Positions 1-60,271 of a DNA stretch of 64,000 bases are shown here, one piece after another (within the stretch, counting starts at the first letter, position 1; the number at the start of each line of letters is the position of its first letter). The notes beneath the pieces are model-generated. The model was not told the origin of the DNA. It did no database searches and saw nothing but the letters and a program-made list of their open reading frames with translations. The translations under genes and the position numbers were made by a program. This stretch comes from Candidatus Berkelbacteria bacterium (GTDB lineage Bacteria; Patescibacteriota; UBA1384; XYA2-FULL-43-10; CAINNR01), in assembly GCA_037142675.1 (NCBI GenBank), contig JBAXAF010000004.1, positions 326 through 64,325 of the forward strand, in the 5' to 3' direction.

Positions 1-755
1 TGTAGGTCATCGCGGTGCGGACCTGATGTTGTTAGCCCGGCGGCAATATCAATTCCCCTTTTAGCATTTAATTTGGCTGCAAAATCCCCTTCAGCTTTGG
101 CGTGATAAATTAGGTCAATCAGAGAATTTTTCTGGCCGGAAATTGTTTGATAAAAACCAGAAATCAAGCCAGCAAAATCTTCTACCGCCGCCTTTCTACT
201 GTTGGTGATAATTTCGGCTGTGGTTACCATTTCCGCATCCCAAAAATCAAGCTGATCCTCGGCAGCCCGCCCATCAGCGATCAACTTCAAAAGATTGTTT
301 CTTTGGGACAGAATCTTTTTGTAGTCCTGCAGCGCACGTAAATATTTATGATCTTTTTGCGATATAACAATATCTAAAAAACGTCGTCGCTCCTTTGGGT
401 CCCCTATTATTATTTCTAAACTCTCGGGCGAAAAGACAACTGATGGTAGGAGCCCAACAAAATCAGCAACCTTGCGCTTAATACCCCTTTCCTTAACCTG
501 AAAAACCAACCTCGGGGTTCGCTGAATAAAAATTTCGAGATCATCGCCAACAATTCTTGCGTAATCATTGTCAAATTTTATCATTTCGAGTCGGTTGTCA
601 CCACGGAAAGAACGGCACGAGGACAACGCCCCAATTGATTCCAAAATATTGGTCTTCCCTATCCCGTTTTTACCAATTAAAACAGTAATCTCCGATAATT
701 CGAGTTCAAAATTGGAGTGATTGCGATAATTTGTAAGAGACAAATGCTTAAGCAT
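1..755 (-). CDS. recF: DNA replication/repair protein RecF (5' part; runs off the window)
   Basis: Minus-strand translation MLKHLSLTNYRNHSNFELE...GKNGIGKTNILE (Walker A)...GPHRDD; truncated, so absent from the ORF track. Confidence 0.85.
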   Translation of the reverse strand, partial: MLKHLSLTNYRNHSNFELELSEITVLIGKNGIGKTNILESIGALSSCRSFRGDNRLEMIKFDNDYARIVGDDLEIFIQRTPRLVFQVKERGIKRKVADFVGLLPSVVFSPESLEIIIGDPKERRRFLDIVISQKDHKYLRALQDYKKILSQRNNLLKLIADGRAAEDQLDFWDAEMVTTAEIITNSRKAAVEDFAGLISGFYQTISGQKNSLIDLIYHAKAEGDFAAKLNAKRGIDIAAGLTTSGPHRDDL

Positions 756-52990: not shown

Positions 52991-54409
52991 ATGGAACAAT
53001 CAAACAATAAAACAATGATTCGCACCCGCTTTGCTCCAAGTCCAACCGGTGAACTTCACATTGGTGGTGCCAGAACTGCACTATTTTCATATTTATTCGC
53101 CAAAAATCAAGCTGGCGAATTTTTGTTGCGCATTGAAGATACTGACCGCGAGAGATTTGTTGAGGGTGCAACTGAGCGGATTATCGAATCACTGGGCTGG
53201 CTGGGAATTGTAGCTGACAACGCTGGCAAGCCAATGGTTCAGTCTGAGCGCCTGGATAAATATCGAAAAGTCGCTTTTGATTTAGTAAATGAGGGGAAAG
53301 CTTACCTTTGCACTTGTACTAAAGAAAAACTAGCAGAGGACCGCGAGCGTCAGCAAAAAGAAAATAAACCACCGCGATACGAAGGTCATTGTCGTGATGC
53401 TAGTATAGACATTAAGACCCTAGCCGAAGGTTGCTACACCATCCGGATGAAGATGCCACAATCAGGGACTATTATTGTTGATGATTTGATCCGAGGCCGT
53501 GTGGAATTCGATGCGGCCTTAATTGACGATCAGGTAATTCTAAAATCTGACGGTTTCCCGACATATCACCTAGCATCTGTTGTTGATGACCACGAAATGG
53601 AAATTACCCATGTCATTCGCTCGGAAGAGTGGTTGTCGTCAACGCCAAAGCATGTTGTTCTTTATGAAATGCTGGGCTGGAGTGCGCCGGAATTTGCTCA
53701 CCCTTCAATGATTTTGGGACCGGATCACTCAAAGCTTTCGAAGCGCCACGGTGCAACATCAGTTATCGATTATAAAAATCAAGGTTATTTACCAAAGGCG
53801 CTAGTGAACTTTATGGCTCTTTTAGGCTGGAATCCGAAGGACGACAGAGAAATCTTCTCGCTAGAAGAATTAATTGGCGAATTTAAACTGGAAAACGTTA
53901 ATAAAAGTGGCGCAATTTTTGACATTGAAAAACTGAATTGGATGAATGGGGAGTATATCCGAGTCGAAAGTCGAAAGTCGAAAGTCGAAAGTCTGAAGGA
54001 TTTTGGTATAGAAGAATTATCAGCCGGAGAATTGGAACTAATTGGTCGTGGCGGGTTTAAAACTTTGAAAGAAGCGGCGGACTATATCATTCAATTGCGC
54101 AAAACACCGGAGTACGATTCATCACTCCTAATTTTCAAAAAATCCGATCGTGAAAAAACCACTATTGGGTTGAAAGCTGCCAGCTGTCAGCTGCTAGCTG
54201 TTAGTTTATGGGAACAAGAAGAAATACAAAAAACCTTGGAATCAATCGTATCTGAGAAAAATTTAACGAACGGCGATGTATTTTGGCCTGTGCGGGTGGC
54301 ACTATCTGGCGCGGAAAAGTCACCGAGTCCAGTTGAATTATTACTAGCTCTCGGTAAAGAAGAATCAATCAAACGAATTACAAAAGCTATAGATGACCTC
54401 AAAAACTAA
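52991..54409 (+). CDS. gltX: Glutamyl-tRNA synthetase
   Basis: IRTRFAPSPTGELHIGGARTALFSY (HIGH), KLSKRHG (KMSKS); start 52991 or 53015. Confidence 0.9.
   Translation: MEQSNNKTMIRTRFAPSPTGELHIGGARTALFSYLFAKNQAGEFLLRIEDTDRERFVEGATERIIESLGWLGIVADNAGKPMVQSERLDKYRKVAFDLVNEGKAYLCTCTKEKLAEDRERQQKENKPPRYEGHCRDASIDIKTLAEGCYTIRMKMPQSGTIIVDDLIRGRVEFDAALIDDQVILKSDGFPTYHLASVVDDHEMEITHVIRSEEWLSSTPKHVVLYEMLGWSAPEFAHPSMILGPDHSKLSKRHGATSVIDYKNQGYLPKALVNFMALLGWNPKDDREIFSLEELIGEFKLENVNKSGAIFDIEKLNWMNGEYIRVESRKSKVESLKDFGIEELSAGELELIGRGGFKTLKEAADYIIQLRKTPEYDSSLLIFKKSDREKTTIGLKAASCQLLAVSLWEQEEIQKTLESIVSEKNLTNGDVFWPVRVALSGAEKSPSPVELLLALGKEESIKRITKAIDDLKN
53963..53997 (+). repeat. Heptanucleotide tandem repeat (gtcgaaa)x4 plus a degenerate copy inside the gltX CDS
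   Basis: gtcgaaagtcgaaagtcgaaagtcgaaagtctgaa. Confidence 0.9.
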
Positions 54410-55511
54410 AACAAAGATTATCCAAGTTATTGCTGACTCGTCACTGGGTGGTGGGGCGAGGCATGTGCTGGGTTTAATATCAAACATTGATAAAGAAAAG
54501 TTTGAGGTTCTTTTAATTGCGCCGCGTGGTTGGTTAACGACTGAAGCAATGAAAATCAAGGATATCAAAGTAAAAATAGTCGAATTTAAAAGTAAGTGGG
54601 ATTTATCATCCCTCACAAAACTCAAAAAAGATGTCGCTGAGTTTCGCAAAAGTGGTGATCCCTTCGCGCCGATTATTATTCATGCTCACGGACCGCGAGC
54701 GGGATCTTTTTGTAAAATGGCACTACGACCAGGCGAGAAATTTATCTACACCGAGCATATTTGGAGTGATGATTATCATTTGAAAAATCCACTGAATTCA
54801 ATTTTGCAGAAGAGCGGACTTCGAGGAATTTACCGCCGATCAGATTCATTAATTGCTGTTTCAAAATCGGTCAAAACCTTTATTGAGAAATTTGGTGTTG
54901 ATAAAAATAAAATTACTATCATCCCAAACGCTGTGGAAATTAGTGATGATAATGCGGAAAAAAACCATTCGGATAAGTTAATGGTTGGCACTATCGGCAA
55001 TTTATATAAACAAAAAGGTCAGCAGTATTTAATTCAGGCATTTGCTAGGGTTGCCGCCAGTTTGCCGAAAGCCAGGCTGGAAATTATTGGTGACGGGCCG
55101 GAAAAGCAGAAACTACTGGACTTAATCAAAGAGTTAGATTTGGAATCCAGGGTGCAACTTTTGGGCAAAATTGACAAACCAAAAAGATATTTAGATAAGT
55201 GGGATTTGTTTGTTCTGCCATCGCTGTCGGAAACCTTTGGCTTAGTAATACTGGAAGCCTTTGCGTCTCGTGTCCCGGTTGTGGCAACACGGGTTGGTGG
55301 CATTCCTGAGCTGATTATTGATGACAAAACCGGCTACCTTGTCCCGCCGGCTGATTCTGAAAAATTGGCCAAAGCAATTTCTTATCTCTTGGCGGAAAAA
55401 AAGAAACGGGAAGCACTGGCCAGCGAAGCCTACGCGCTTTTGAAAAAGCACTACGATTGGGAAAAGGTAATTAAAGAAATTGAAAACGAATATTTAAAGC
55501 TCTCGAAATAA
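54393..55511 (+). CDS. GT4-family (group 1) glycosyltransferase
   Basis: ETFGLVILEAFASRVPVVATRVGGIPELI (EX7E region). Confidence 0.82.
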   Translation: MTSKTKTKIIQVIADSSLGGGARHVLGLISNIDKEKFEVLLIAPRGWLTTEAMKIKDIKVKIVEFKSKWDLSSLTKLKKDVAEFRKSGDPFAPIIIHAHGPRAGSFCKMALRPGEKFIYTEHIWSDDYHLKNPLNSILQKSGLRGIYRRSDSLIAVSKSVKTFIEKFGVDKNKITIIPNAVEISDDNAEKNHSDKLMVGTIGNLYKQKGQQYLIQAFARVAASLPKARLEIIGDGPEKQKLLDLIKELDLESRVQLLGKIDKPKRYLDKWDLFVLPSLSETFGLVILEAFASRVPVVATRVGGIPELIIDDKTGYLVPPADSEKLAKAISYLLAEKKKREALASEAYALLKKHYDWEKVIKEIENEYLKLSK

Positions 55512-56948: not shown

Positions 56949-57707
56949 ATGTTTTGGCAGAAGGAAGAAAACCGAGGGTCTTGGGCGGCTTACACTGATG
57001 TGATGAAAATTCACCCAATTTCTCGTGTTACCGCCGATAAGGTTTTGGTTTTGGCGCCACATCCAGATGACGATGTTTTAGGTTGCGGAGGACTCTTGGC
57101 CGAGCTATCTGAGGCTGGTGCAAAAATCAAAGTGGTTTATTTTACTGATGGTTCTCGTGGCAACCGCGAGGCTAAGTTTTCTGAAAATTTAATCGCACAG
57201 AGGGAAGAAGAATCGGTTGAAGCTGGAAAAGTTTTAAAAATCTCTGAACAGAAATTTCTTCGGCTACCCCATAATTCCTTGAAGTCTAGTATTGAGTTGG
57301 CGGCGATTATCCGCAAAGAAATTGAGTTCGACAAACCTGACTTAATTTTAGCACCCTCATTTGAGGAACCGCACCCAGACCATTTAGCGGTTTTGGAGGC
57401 ACTAAATTTAGGTTTAAAAAATTATTCTGAAGGTTTAAATATTTGGTTGTATGAAGTTTTTGGAACCGGGCGGTTAAATCGCCTGTTTATTATAGATGAT
57501 TTTGTTGAAGTGAAAACAGAAGCTCTTAAGTGCCACAAAAGTCAGTACAAAATTAAAAAATATGACGAGGCAATATTGTCCTTGAATAAATTTCGGGCAC
57601 TGTCGGCTGGAATTGGAAATTATGCCGAGGGTTATTATTCCACCGGTCCGCGAACATTTCAAAAATTATTTGAGTTTTACCAGCGTCATCACGAAAGTAG
57701 AATTTGA
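56949..57707 (+). CDS. PIG-L/LmbE-family N-acetylglucosaminyl deacetylase (paralog 1)
   Basis: VLAPHPDDDVLGCGG zinc-binding motif. Confidence 0.8.
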   Translation: MFWQKEENRGSWAAYTDVMKIHPISRVTADKVLVLAPHPDDDVLGCGGLLAELSEAGAKIKVVYFTDGSRGNREAKFSENLIAQREEESVEAGKVLKISEQKFLRLPHNSLKSSIELAAIIRKEIEFDKPDLILAPSFEEPHPDHLAVLEALNLGLKNYSEGLNIWLYEVFGTGRLNRLFIIDDFVEVKTEALKCHKSQYKIKKYDEAILSLNKFRALSAGIGNYAEGYYSTGPRTFQKLFEFYQRHHESRI

Positions 57708-57740: not shown

Positions 57741-58364
57741 TTGACAGGTGGGGCTTGTGGCGGAAAAACCACGACTATCGAAGCTGTCAAAAAAGATCTT
57801 GGTGATCGAGTTATTGTCGTCCCCGAAGTTGCATCTCAACTTATTCGGCCACTAGAAAAAGGAGGAGTCGGAATACCGGGCGTTGATATCGAGTGGTCGC
57901 AGGAATGGCAGGATGAATTACAACAACAAATTCTAGTAAAACAATTAAATGATGAAAACATATCGATTAGTGAAGCCGAAATGTTTGAAGGGCCGTCCAT
58001 CGTACTTTGCGACAGAGGAGTTCTCGACGGGGCCGTTTATATGTCTGGTGGGCTAGAAGAGTTTCTCGAAAAGTTTCATTTGGAGTACAGCGCTTGTATT
58101 TCGCGATACGATGCGATTATTCACCTCAATTCATTGGCTGTTGATGATCCGGAAAAATTCATCGAGTTTTTTAAATCAAACTCAGCAAGACATAGACAAG
58201 TTGACAAGGCGGCGTTACTTGATAAAGCGATTTTTGAGGTCTGGAAAGGCCACCAGAATCACCTGCGAGTTGCTTCGACTGAAGAGATGGAAGAAAAAAT
58301 TGAATTGGTGCTATCAGAAATACGAAAGGAATTAGGGCGGGTTAATGCAGAATTGGGGGGCTGA
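57741..58364 (+). CDS. P-loop NTPase (AAA_28 / nucleoside-kinase-like)
   Basis: TTG start; LTGGACGGKTTT Walker A. Confidence 0.6.
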   Translation: MTGGACGGKTTTIEAVKKDLGDRVIVVPEVASQLIRPLEKGGVGIPGVDIEWSQEWQDELQQQILVKQLNDENISISEAEMFEGPSIVLCDRGVLDGAVYMSGGLEEFLEKFHLEYSACISRYDAIIHLNSLAVDDPEKFIEFFKSNSARHRQVDKAALLDKAIFEVWKGHQNHLRVASTEEMEEKIELVLSEIRKELGRVNAELGG

Positions 58365-58428: not shown

Positions 58429-59184
58429 ATGAGCATTAAAAAACAATTTCTGTCGGCATTTAGAACTATGAATTTTGCTGCCGCTGAGGCTGGTTGGCGA
58501 ATTTTCACCAGTGGCGCCGATTTTAAAGTGGTGGAAGAATTACCAAATAATGATATTTTAATTATTGCCCCGCACCCGGATGATGAGATTTTTGCTTGCT
58601 CCGGAGTAATATCTAGAGTAAAAAAGGATCAAAAAATTAAAATAGCCTACATTTTTTCTGGAGATAAACTATCGCGATCAGAGCGAGCTAGTGCGAGAGA
58701 AGAAGAGTCAAAAAGTGCAGTAGAACAATCTGAAAATCTCGAGCAAATATTTTGTCGTCAACCAGACAATTCGATTGTGGACAAAGAAACAATTTATGAT
58801 CTTTCGACTATTATCTTGGAAATGAAACCAGGGATTATTCTAACGCCGAACTTTTCTTGCCCAAATGACGACCATCGTGAGGCGACGAAGGCAATTGTTG
58901 AGGCATTAAAACTGGCAAAAATAAAAGGCCAAGATCTCAAAGAAATTTCTATTTGGCTTTACGGCGTTTGGGGGCCATTACCGTATTTTAATCGATTGTT
59001 GAAAGTTGACGTAGATAAAAAAGAAAAGGCAATGGAGAAGTTCTTATCGCAACATAAGGACCGAAATTATATTAAGGCTATAAAATCGCTCGATGATTAC
59101 TATGGCGAAATTTACGGTTTAGCTTACTCCACCGAAGCCTTTTTCGCCGTGCCGGCAGATTTGCTGCTCAAGCTCTATAAATAA
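58429..59184 (+). CDS. PIG-L/LmbE-family deacetylase (paralog 2)
   Basis: IIAPHPDDEIFACSG. Confidence 0.8.
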   Translation: MSIKKQFLSAFRTMNFAAAEAGWRIFTSGADFKVVEELPNNDILIIAPHPDDEIFACSGVISRVKKDQKIKIAYIFSGDKLSRSERASAREEESKSAVEQSENLEQIFCRQPDNSIVDKETIYDLSTIILEMKPGIILTPNFSCPNDDHREATKAIVEALKLAKIKGQDLKEISIWLYGVWGPLPYFNRLLKVDVDKKEKAMEKFLSQHKDRNYIKAIKSLDDYYGEIYGLAYSTEAFFAVPADLLLKLYK

Positions 59185-59225: not shown

Positions 59226-59681
59226 TCATCCTCCATTTTTCTTGGCGATGTTCTTTTTCCGGCCAGATCCTTGGAGTGAAGCCATCAGCAACTTTTCATC
59301 ATCGGAGAGGTATCGGTTGCAGGCCTCGGCGATGCTGTGCTGGGTGCACTTCAGACGTTTGTGCATTTTGGCGGCAGACGGGTAGATGTTGGCTTTCAAG
59401 CGCCAGCGGACTGCGACCAAAACGCGTTTGGTTTTGTCGCAGGTATGACGTCCGCGTTGTCGTTTTGGCTTTTGGGGCCACTTGGTCTTTCTTTTTCTCT
59501 TCCGCTCTGCTGGCGCCAGATCCCTGGTCAAGATCTGCCCGATCCTTGTCCCGGTTACCCCGTAGTGCTTCCCCAGTTCCTCGTTGGTTTGGTACTTGCG
59601 TTCACCGCGGATCATCGCTCGAACTCGGGCGATCAGATCCTTGGTGTCAACTTTAGTTTCGGCCAAACTGACCACCTCCAT
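59226..59681 (-). CDS. GC-rich small DNA-binding protein with sigma-70 region-4-like HTH and basic tail
   Basis: EELGKHYGVTGTRIGQILTRDL; KRKRKTKWPQKPKRQRGR; promoter TTGACC-17-TATATT at 59694-59722, so the mRNA is (near-)leaderless; start 59681 or 59690. Confidence 0.5.
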   Translation of the reverse strand: MEVVSLAETKVDTKDLIARVRAMIRGERKYQTNEELGKHYGVTGTRIGQILTRDLAPAERKRKRKTKWPQKPKRQRGRHTCDKTKRVLVAVRWRLKANIYPSAAKMHKRLKCTQHSIAEACNRYLSDDEKLLMASLQGSGRKKNIAKKNGG

Positions 59682-59769
59682 CGTTCTCATGACAATATAG
59701 CGGAAAAAACAACTCCGGTCAATCAGCGGATTGATAATTAGGCACAAATATGGTAAAATTTTCTAGTAA

Positions 59770-59843
59770 TCCCGGGTAGTATAATGGCAGTACGGTGGAT
59801 TCTGGCTCCATTAATCTAGGTTCGACCCCTAGCCCGGGAACCA
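59770..59843 (+). tRNA. tRNA-Gln (anticodon CTG)
   Basis: tcccggg tagtataatggcagtac g gtgga ttctggc tccat ... ggttcgacccctagcccgggaacca. Confidence 0.8.
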
Positions 59844-59875
59844 ATTTTTGTTTCAGGGCAGGCGAGAGCGCGAAA

Positions 59876-59977
59876 GGGGTCGGGAAAAATGCTGTTTTCC
59901 CGCCGGAGGAAATTATTCAAAACCGTGGGTTTTGAAAAGCCTCGAAGAGGCGCGCGAGACCCCTAGCCCGGGAACCA
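59876..59977 (+). repeat. tRNA-linked structured element, copy 1 (ends in an exact copy of the tRNA-Gln 3' 20 nt)
   Basis: ggggtcgggaaaaatgctgttttcccg...ttcaaaaccgtgggttttgaa...gacccctagcccgggaacca. Confidence 0.8.
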
Positions 59978-59978
59978 T

Positions 59979-60055
59979 GGCCCGGTCGTCTAGTGGCCTA
60001 GGATACTTGGTTCTCATCCAAGAGATCATGGGTTCGACTCCCATCCGGGCTACCA
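59979..60055 (+). tRNA. tRNA-Glu (anticodon CTC)
   Basis: ggcccggtcgtctagtggcctaggatacttggttctcatccaagagatcatgggttcgactcccatccgggctacca; hairpin plus T6 terminator at 60058-60090. Confidence 0.8.
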
Positions 60056-60112
60056 TGAAAAGTGCATCACTTCGGTGATGCTTTTTTCATGGTAAATGGA
60101 AGTCGAACGGGA

Positions 60113-60208
60113 AGGGGTCGGGAAACGGGAGTTTCCCGCAGAGGAAGATAATAGAAACCGTGAGTTTCTATAAGCCGAAGGCGTGTGAGCCTCCCATCCG
60201 GGCTACCA
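60113..60208 (+). repeat. tRNA-linked structured element, copy 2 (ends in an exact copy of the tRNA-Glu 3' 18 nt)
   Basis: ggggtcgggaaacgggagtttcccg...atagaaaccgtgagtttctat...ctcccatccgggctacca; terminator ctgaagttttgcttcag plus T-run at 60213-60238. Confidence 0.8.
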
Positions 60209-60271
60209 AAAAATTCTGAAGTTTTGCTTCAGGATTTTTTGTTTTGATCAAATTGAGCTAGAATAGAGTGG

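Follow-up and report, generated by a model that had tools for sequence, protein, structure and literature searches.

A structured element without reading frames at tRNA and protein gene ends of Patescibacteria, with signs of mobility

Two transfer RNA (tRNA) genes of a Candidatus Berkelbacteria bacterium, those for tRNA-Gln and tRNA-Glu, are each trailed by a compact structured unit that ends in a second copy of the tRNA's own 3' end. Both units lie in a window of 64,000 nucleotides (nt) (contig JBAXAF010000004.1, positions 326 to 64,325), and they belong to an apparently undescribed family of small elements. We conclude that the element is probably, though by no means certainly, a structured, mobile, non-autonomous insertion element that lacks an open reading frame (ORF) and is gained and lost by recombination through the copy of a gene end that it carries. 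This reading is best supported because the entire unit is an insertion or deletion between close relatives, because near-identical cores occur at different targets, and because the element is patchily distributed, carries repeats that look foreign and has no ORF. The data also show that its single-strand structure is under selection.

Anatomy and distribution of the family

A collection holding one genome per species was scanned with the pattern GGGGTCGGGAAA N3-12 TTTCCCGC, which matched more than 118 stretches, about 25 of the pattern matches being chance occurrences in coding DNA of other phyla. The 118 loci analysed here, designated by L-numbers, are those among the matches listed, and the family counts refer to them. 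Both window copies and their relatives seeded a covariance model of the core (R1; 88 positions, 20 base pairs), and at E<=1e-4 this model detected about 115 copies within the 118 loci, a dozen of which the pattern had missed. An earlier note on the window, made from the sequence without database searches, had set against its own proposals a null of two independent chance duplications of tRNA parts, with no family behind them. The window does hold just two copies of the element, but about 115 copies of the same anatomy in dozens of independent assemblies refute that null, and its probability is negligible.

The hosts were almost all metagenome-assembled genomes (MAGs) of Patescibacteria, the Candidate Phyla Radiation (CPR), from many independent studies. 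They included Saccharibacteria, Berkelbacteria, Moranbacteria, Kaiserbacteria, Nomurabacteria, Falkowbacteria, Doudnabacteria, Portnoybacteria, Paceibacteria and Parcubacteria, among others. Four loci (L011, L109, L005 and L044) have typical elements and CPR-like tRNA contexts yet are labelled Gammaproteobacteria, Bdellovibrionales or Bathyarchaeia; these contigs are probably mis-binned CPR, and the element may be of use as a CPR marker.

The earlier note knew of no described family with this layout, and our searches agree. Rfam 15, applied at the gathering score and at E<=10 to the window and two other family members, matched the tRNAs only; sub-threshold matches to CRISPR-DR2, PrrB_RsmZ and mir-8512 lay far below the gathering score (E>0.1) and were rejected as chance. 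No family match was found in IMG/VR (pattern scan), among INPHARED phages or among PLSDB plasmids, and no description of such a family was found in the full-text literature. A paper on tRNA-gene group I introns in Patescibacteria concerns introns of the anticodon loop, which are unrelated to the element (PMC13011429).

The order of parts is constant: the intact end of the target gene (A), a spacer, an inverted arm (B), a linker, the core, and a second, direct copy of the gene end (C). The whole unit measures about 130-250 base pairs (bp). Its spacer varies from 8 to 170 nt and sometimes holds a terminator, and the linker is 6 nt long, NGGGAA. The core, of about 80 nt, has three conserved hairpins (H1 to H3). 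It runs from GGGGUC through H1 (GGGAAA(A)C / G(U)UUUCCC), a junction rich in purines (GC-NN-GGAAG), H2, with a covarying outer stem and a conserved AAACC-GUG/GAG/GCAA-GGUUU, and a variable H3 (often GC-GAA-GC), to GAC. A tRNA gene lies on the same strand within 170 nt upstream of 82 of the 115 copies, 17 amino-acid identities being represented, and two further copies follow a transfer-messenger RNA (tmRNA) gene (L106, L117). An exact copy of 12-30 nt (median 19) of the adjoining upstream tRNA's 3' end was found in 57 copies; in 28 of these a pseudo-T-loop, GUGARA, stands between core and C.

At tRNA genes the repeat starts 14-20 nt before the end of the tRNA, at the boundary of T-loop and T-stem, and stops 0-6 nt past the end; at a few loci it extends 30-90 nt onward through the terminator, the longest repeat being 93 nt. 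Where CCA is not encoded the repeat follows the genomic trailer instead, which implies that it was copied from DNA or a primary transcript and not from mature tRNA. Arm B, which always lies directly against the linker, consists of the first 9-20 nt of the repeat region in reverse complement. At tRNA genes it reads GGAYUCGAAC, the complement of the T-loop and the 3' strand of the T-stem, and it tracks the T-loop variant of each tRNA; its outer part is often complementary to NCCA, and the part that faces the acceptor strand is degenerate or deleted. The arms are cognate-specific across the family, the cognate 3' arm ranking first or second for 19 of the 57 5' arms. In many loci A, spacer and B make up one long palindrome with a terminator-like hairpin at its apex.

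Both window copies show this anatomy (Table 1). As the earlier note had described, they are homologous and end in exact copies, of 20 nt and 18 nt, of their own tRNAs. The length of about 100 nt that it gave holds for core plus repeat; the unit is longer by the 5' arm and the linker. That inverted arm had been overlooked, as had the tmRNA and protein-gene targets and the armless cores treated below. The two copies agree in 76% of columns in a pairwise alignment. C1 is followed by 1 nt and then by tRNA-Glu, and a minimum-free-energy fold of 59844-59977 pairs arm B1 with 59962-59975. In B2 the acceptor-strand-facing part is deleted, and the hairpin upstream of it forms with its flanks a long palindrome that reaches from the T-loop of tRNA-Glu to arm B2 (-24..+53 from the tRNA end). 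No ORF lies inside the element unit.

Several loci depart from the common core. A subfamily (L098, L052, L005, L093 and L117:7227-7292) retains GGGGUC, H1, the arms and the repeat but has another module (..GGGUGAC-hairpin-CCAGAGGGCGGAARCCCUAU..) in place of the junction and H2. The orthologue of copy 2 in L111 (~255-310, minus strand) has an extra insertion of about 55 nt in the H2 region, and large insertions at the same point of H2 occur in L013, L038, L020 and L101, which suggests that this region is a permissive or nested insertion site.

Gain, loss and retargeting of the element

The locus L017, from Berkelbacteria ELA704, is collinear with the window on either side of copy 2 (92.5% and 85.6% identity) and lacks exactly 60056-60208. 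Its tRNA-Glu directly abuts the terminator that follows C2 in the window, and the difference between the two genomes is the entire 153-nt unit, including one copy of the 18-nt repeat. For the tRNA-Gln site a metagenome scan gave no exact match to an empty allele. In L111, from MAG JBAZJN01, the stretch of tRNA-Glu, spacer, B and 5' core is 98.3% identical to the window, whereas tRNA-Gln with its element is 82% identical and the flanks are unalignable, which points to a recent exchange of the unit.

Cores 95-96% identical to copy 2 were found behind tRNA-Leu in L023 and behind tRNA-Val in L067, a locus of the MAG that also contains L017; in each case the arms match the tRNA concerned. MAG JBAZJN01 carries at least six copies, of two core subfamilies, at six different tRNAs, and MAG JBAYHC01 carries at least five. 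Of 123 tRNA units inside element-bearing loci, 48 are without an element, and the occupied positions differ between orthologous operons: Met-element-Met-element-Asp in L050 against Met-Met-Asp-element in L022. The element is therefore dispensable and patchy. One proposal of the earlier note, a miniature integrative element with attL/attR architecture, is supported by the exact empty site, the repeats from T-loop to gene end, the near-identical cores at different tRNAs and the unoccupied units. Behind tRNA-Tyr in L114 (5661-6070) the element occurs as two identical tandem copies, the repeat unit being about 286 nt, as expected of unequal recombination between direct repeats.

The same order of A, B, core and C recurs at the 5' ends of protein genes on the opposite strand, so that the target range comprises 17 tRNA identities, tmRNA and at least five protein genes. 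The protein targets include elongation factor G (EF-G; L056, L029), RNase HI (L082), DnaX (L087), DinB (L113, L016) and a GT4 glycosyltransferase (L085), among others. The body of the gene lies on the B side and is kept intact by copy A. The repeat, 35-76 nt long, begins at codon 11-21 and extends outward as far as the start codon, at which similarity ends. Copies A and C of EF-G differ in 11 synonymous and 2 non-synonymous codons in L056, both of the latter at the junction, and in 10 synonymous and 1 non-synonymous codons in L029. GC content at third codon positions in EF-G is 0.18 in C as against 0.65 in A, 0.63 in the whole gene and 0.50-0.54 in other ORFs of the locus. Because the differences are mostly synonymous and the third-position composition is at odds with the host, C looks like the end of another lineage's functional gene and not like a decaying target-site duplication. 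Copy C of the GT4 gene in L085 has a stop at codon 2.

The protein-gene loci gave further observations. An in-frame insertion in EF-G was considered and rejected, since the reading frame is not continuous. In L056 (5454-5641) the displaced EF-G start in C opens an upstream ORF of 62 codons, which crosses the entire element in reverse complement and terminates 11 nt short of the true EF-G start codon; judged by this arrangement, translational coupling across the insertion could occur. The inner junction of the repeat often falls at a palindrome of 6-10 bp (L085, L056, L113, L042/L116): TTCGAA in T-loops, CATCGATG in EF-G, ATGCAT in DinB, GAACGCGTTC in GT4, and CGCGCG, with ATCGAT and ACGCGT seen as well. 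No such palindrome is present at L029, L048 or L087, and it may or may not have a role in the choice of target.

A direct repeat that spans a tRNA gene from T-loop to 3' end is the classical footprint of tyrosine integrases, and the units might on that account be decayed attR-side remnants of large integrative elements, such as prophages or islands, that had entered tRNA genes. The repeats match that footprint and the window region is GC-rich relative to its surroundings. However, more than 100 loci share the same compact unit and core with B right beside A, an outcome that random deletion would not give; there was no phage, plasmid or viral match and no integrase in the flanks examined; and the 153-bp unit is itself the indel between close relatives. 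We regard such an origin as very unlikely and, together with chance duplication, as effectively excluded.

The flanking genes were compared through 753 ORFs from 54 loci, among which no integrase, transposase, reverse transcriptase or recombinase family recurs. The sole protein family common to more than five loci is a small GIY-YIG nuclease. Its stand-alone ORFs (78-104 amino acids, Pfam PF01541, E 1e-15 to 1e-18) occur at L086:4467-4779, L069:2722-2995, L022:1946-2180, L090, L064 and L011; in these 6 of the 54 loci they end 5-220 nt upstream of an element-bearing tRNA in the same orientation, and none lies beside element-free tRNAs. By a rough estimate on numbers that are too small the association is statistically unconvincing, and the nuclease is a candidate for an enzyme acting in trans.

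Other genes neighbour the tRNA region of the window (Table 1). Directly upstream of tRNA-Gln, and divergent from it, lies an orphan ORF of about 153 amino acids with a helix-turn-helix-like stretch and a very basic middle, which belongs to no Pfam or NCBIfam family. It coincides with a GC-rich patch (0.51-0.56 against ~0.38-0.42 around it), and just two further loci, probably L017 and L111, have homologues of it. Two paralogous genes for PIG-L family deacetylases, just upstream of the tRNA region, stand on either side of an AAA_28 ATPase gene, and a glycosyltransferase-like ORF lies farther upstream. The PIG-L, AAA_28 and glycosyltransferase-like genes are ordinary cell-envelope genes, unrelated to the element.

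Table 1. Features of the element locus and neighbouring genes in the window.
Feature	Position	Strand	Basis and remarks
Putative sigma-70-like promoter, TTGATA-17-TAAAAT with TG extension	59731..59759	+	Consensus scan, 10/12 matches; would serve the tRNA-Gln/element 1/tRNA-Glu transcript
tRNA-Gln(CUG), CCA encoded	59770..59843	+	ARAGORN; Rfam tRNA, 59.3 bits
Repeat copy A1, last 20 nt of tRNA-Gln	59824-59843	+	Sequence
5' arm B1, degenerate reverse complement of tRNA-Gln 3' part	59850..59869	+	GUUUCAGGGCAGG pairs with CCUAGCCCGGGAAC of C1
Linker 1, GCGAAA	59870..59875	+	Alignments, linker census; family consensus NGGGAA / NCGAAA, final A
Core 1	59876..59957	+	R1, 81.1 bits, E 3.5e-19
Order of core 1			GGGGUC, H1 59881-59902, junction GCCGGAGGAAA, H2 59916-59936, H3 59939-59951, GCGCGA
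Repeat copy C1, gacccctagcccgggaacca	59958..59977	+	Sequence; exact 20-nt copy of tRNA-Gln 3' end including ACCA
tRNA-Glu(CUC), CCA encoded	59979..60055	+	ARAGORN, Rfam
Repeat copy A2, last 18 nt of tRNA-Glu	60038-60055	+	Sequence
Terminator-like hairpin, GCAUCAC-UUCG-GUGAUGC and U run	60064..60089	+	Terminator scan; within inserted segment
5' arm B2 (UGGUAAAUGGAAGUCGAAC)	60090..60108	+	Complementary to UACCA and to T-stem/T-loop part GUUCGACUCCCAU of tRNA-Glu
Linker 2, GGGAA	60109..60113	+	Alignments, linker census
Core 2	60114..60190	+	R1, 93.1 bits, E 2.1e-22, top match of all
Order of core 2			GGGGUC, H1 60119-60138, junction GCAGAGGAAG, H2 60151-60171, H3 60174-60182, GUGUGAGC (pseudo-T-loop)
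Repeat copy C2, ctcccatccgggctacca	60191..60208	+	Sequence; exact 18-nt copy of tRNA-Glu 3' end
Resident intrinsic terminator of tRNA operon	60207..60241	+	Terminator scan; directly 3' of tRNA-Glu in L017
Orphan ORF	59226-59687	-	
PIG-L family deacetylase paralogues	56949-57707, 58429-59184	+	
AAA_28 ATPase gene	57741-58364	+	
Glycosyltransferase-like ORF	54393-55511		

Structure, transcription and the case for a functional RNA

Pair statistics were taken from a model-based alignment of 109 copies, with 500 shuffles as control. Cells assigned to pairs were paired in 90% of cases, compared with 74% in the shuffles, and 17 of the 20 pairs showed change on both sides. The covariation score was 0.28 against 0.08; none of the 500 shuffles reached the observed values, and shifting the partners abolished the signal. 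All nine pairs of H2 (helix B of the earlier note) covary with double-sided changes, and the sequence of H1 (helix A) is nearly invariant save for its last pair (AU 56 / CG 38). The compensatory exchanges between the window copies that the earlier note had read, one in helix A (A-U to C-G) and three in helix B, are present in the sequence. G·U and U·G pairs number 46 compared with 25 A·C and C·A, and 14 of the A·C are due to a shifted register of the GCAA subfamily; the outermost pair of H2 has 13 G·U and 1 A·C. The B and C arms show no G·U asymmetry between strands. The plus-strand excess of G·U indicates a folded molecule of the tRNA sense, either RNA or the top DNA strand, and single-strand structure is under selection.

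Folding predicts that B pairs with C, and the element has a UGAGA that resembles a T-loop; the portion of B opposite the acceptor strand is often degenerate. As the sequences read, UCGAAC of B can form a tandem-G·A helix with the pseudo-T-loop GUGAGA in 28 of 57 copies, and elsewhere GCUCGAA pairs canonically.

Other interpretations of the core were tried and rejected. A hammerhead-like ribozyme, suggested by eye from CUGANGA/GAAA/GUC, is not sustained by the family variants GGUGGAA and GUCGGAA, and Rfam gave no match to the hepatitis delta virus, twister or pistol ribozymes. A pseudoknot joining the GGNGG of the junction to the loop of H2 was dropped, since closure of H2 by CC/GG with GUG, GAG or GCAA loops, together with correlation by subfamily, is the better explanation. 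The first and fourth G-tracts of a possible G-quadruplex in GGGAAGGGGUCGGGAAACGGG are not conserved. A short ORF from GUG in H2 would encode an unconserved peptide, whereas the stem covaries.

Copy 1, placed between two tRNAs and only 1 nt short of the second, must for that reason be co-transcribed with them; RNase P cleavage at tRNA-Glu would there free the 3' end of the element. Copy 2 sits behind a terminator-like hairpin and is followed by a second terminator. In a census of 47 operon-terminal and 10 internal copies, such a hairpin separates tRNA and core in 17 and 2 copies, respectively; in the others the tRNA's terminator comes only after the element. The earlier note's second proposal, a small RNA co-transcribed with tRNAs, stands as a description, given the position of copy 1 inside an operon, the 30 of 47 terminal copies without an intervening terminator and the plus-strand G·U pairs, but a function of that RNA does not follow.

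It is nonetheless possible, at a probability that we place well below even, that the element is a functional small RNA of tRNA operons, its core being active and excised by tRNA 3' processing upstream and RNase P downstream. Where no tRNA follows, the B:C stem with GUGAGAU and NCCA would be a surrogate acceptor/T minihelix for processing, CCA addition or stability, and the repeat would be a by-product of local duplication whose identity is kept by selection or gene conversion. The strong covariation and G·U excess speak for such an RNA, as do the terminal copies without a terminator, the conservation of H1 and junction sequences across CPR classes, the tandem-G·A helix open to half of the 57 copies, the armless cores that abut tRNAs on both sides (L036, L088), and compensatory change between orthologues (H3 is GCCUC/GAGGC in the window and GCUUC/GAAGC in L017). 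On the other hand, a functional RNA sits poorly with the 48 empty tRNA units and the exact empty site, and with the 17 terminal copies behind a terminator. At protein-gene 5' ends the element is antisense, where plus-strand transcription is unexpected, and a surrogate helix needs neither a match to its neighbour nor xenologous coding sequence.

Transcription with the tRNA would also suit a non-autonomous retroelement, in which the target copy at the 3' end of the RNA anneals to a nicked gene and primes a reverse transcriptase supplied in trans, arm B arising by snap-back or template switching. Retroviral primer-binding sites cover the same span of about 18-20 nt from T-loop to tRNA 3' end as the repeat does here. 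The constant co-orientation with the tRNA, the usual co-transcription, the selected plus-strand structure and the variable outer boundaries of the repeat are likewise in accord with retroposition. We nevertheless consider it quite improbable. Repeats at genes that lack CCA follow the genomic trailer, which fails to agree with copying from a mature CCA end; the antisense protein-gene targets bear no consistent RNA-level relation to the target transcript; and the 753 neighbouring ORFs include no reverse transcriptase. A survey found Patescibacteria to be without group II introns (PMC13011429), which we also count against it.

Proposed mechanism, known systems and significance

In the recombinational model that we favour, the element would bring with it a copy of its target's end, and would enter and leave by Campbell-like recombination of that copy with the chromosomal gene, the agent being either host homologous recombination or an enzyme acting in trans. 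Spread from genome to genome would use the conserved gene as a portable homology arm. The T-loop, which all tRNAs share with tmRNA, would be the seed for hops between different tRNA genes, and after a hop the arms would come to match the new target. The tRNA-sense strand would fold with B paired to C and to the pseudo-T-loop, often by tandem G·A, closing a junction with H1, H2 and H3. The model explains the repeat, the exact empty site, the choice of highly conserved targets (T-loop to 3' end of tRNAs and tmRNA; N-terminal motifs of EF-G, DnaX, DinB and RNase HI) and the ending of similarity at the gene boundary.

Several observations weigh against it. Arm B of L056 matches the gene-proximal A at 13/13 positions rather than the foreign-looking C, so that for an element carrying B and C together a further step has to be assumed, whether conversion or B being copied de novo from the resident gene. 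Cores lacking both B arm and repeat stand directly beside tRNAs in L036, L088 and L068. The order in L036 is promoter-core-tRNAArg-core-tRNALys-tRNA, with cores 0-2 nt from the tRNAs; in L088 the stretch separating tRNA-Val from tRNA-Phe consists of a core; and in L068 and L036 (plus strand) a core directly precedes a tRNA. The core can thus exist as a bare spacer between tRNAs, excisable by RNase P and 3'-end processing, which purely recombinational insertion does not predict and which a processed RNA module fits better. Most copies are co-transcribed with a tRNA, which leaves room for an RNA function. [quoted passage not shown] Neither a recombinase nor a circular or other free form was seen, and the insertion reaction itself is thus something that we infer. 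The model does not explain the match of B to the resident gene, the rewriting of arms after a hop or the armless cores, and these three points keep alive the functional RNA as well as a guided form of insertion.

In that guided form the element would be programmable without a gene of its own: the hairpin stem made of target copies would open, B and C would pair with both strands of the target and guide insertion by host enzymes, and the arms would be rewritten at each hop with the T-loop as universal seed. We think this doubtful, a shade more so than the functional RNA. If it were true, the conserved 80-nt core, and not a transposase gene, would be the heritable "machine" of guide-directed insertion.

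Comparison with known systems places the element with the miniature and integrative mobile elements, although there is a real chance that it is something further removed. Like integrative elements of tRNA and tmRNA genes, it has a repeat from T-loop to 3' end, leaves the gene intact and has an exact single-copy empty site in a relative. Unlike them, it measures 130-250 bp, has no integrase or other ORF in the unit or recurring in the flanks, holds a structured 80-nt core instead of cargo, adds an inverted partial copy of the target, and places one core at many targets with matching arms. The protein-gene targets may be likened to SXT at prfC, where an integrative element supplies or duplicates a gene end. 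MITEs are likewise small, foldable and free of ORFs, with several copies per genome, a target duplication and inverted sequences beside the body. The arms here, however, copy the individual target and are not conserved terminal inverted repeats, the duplication is long, variable and sometimes xenologous, insertion is polar to the gene end, and no parent insertion sequence (IS) is known.

A strand that folds through imperfect inverted repeats, with asymmetry between strands, is shared with integron attC sites and with the attP(+) hairpin of CTX-phi, a substrate of XerCD; in CTX-phi a duplex target is mimicked when two inverted sites, similar to the target and separated by about 90 nt, anneal, an arrangement that resembles A and B. 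Those systems have one fixed target (attI or dif) and a known recombinase, whereas the element has many targets and a mimic rewritten for each. Palindrome-associated transposable elements (PATEs) of the IS200/IS605 group and TnpB omega-RNAs are also non-autonomous, with strand-specific hairpins and a scaffold followed by about 16-20 nt at the 3' end that match neighbouring DNA. They differ in making no target duplication, in using a motif of 4-5 nt and in taking an unduplicated flank as guide, while the element always duplicates; its flanks are without TnpA, TnpB or IscB families, and Rfam gave no omega-RNA or HEARO match. With tRNA-like modules (the tRNA-like domain of tmRNA, viral tRNA-like structures and mascRNA-type RNAs) the element shares a 5' strand predicted to pair with an acceptor/T 3' half ending in NCCA, a T-loop-like UGAGA, and a location in tRNA operons that would imply processing by RNase P and RNase Z. 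It differs in that its acceptor pairing is often degenerate or deleted, that it has no D-loop partner, that its identity follows the neighbouring gene and that protein-gene ends are used. We know of no described precedent for an ORF-less element whose arms always match the local target.

A large part of bacterial diversity belongs to the CPR, whose tiny genomes are believed to be poor in mobile elements. A family present in many of their lineages, at several tRNA genes per genome, would be a major unnoticed feature of their genome dynamics. It would account for partial "pseudo-tRNA" 3' ends and duplicated gene starts in the annotations of MAGs, and it would mark the recombination junctions at which conserved genes were exchanged between lineages. 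The core, which covaries well, is a candidate for entry into Rfam as a new family. Should the arms act as guides, the nucleic-acid-guided insertion systems, which include bridge RNAs and omega-RNAs, would gain a further and much smaller member.

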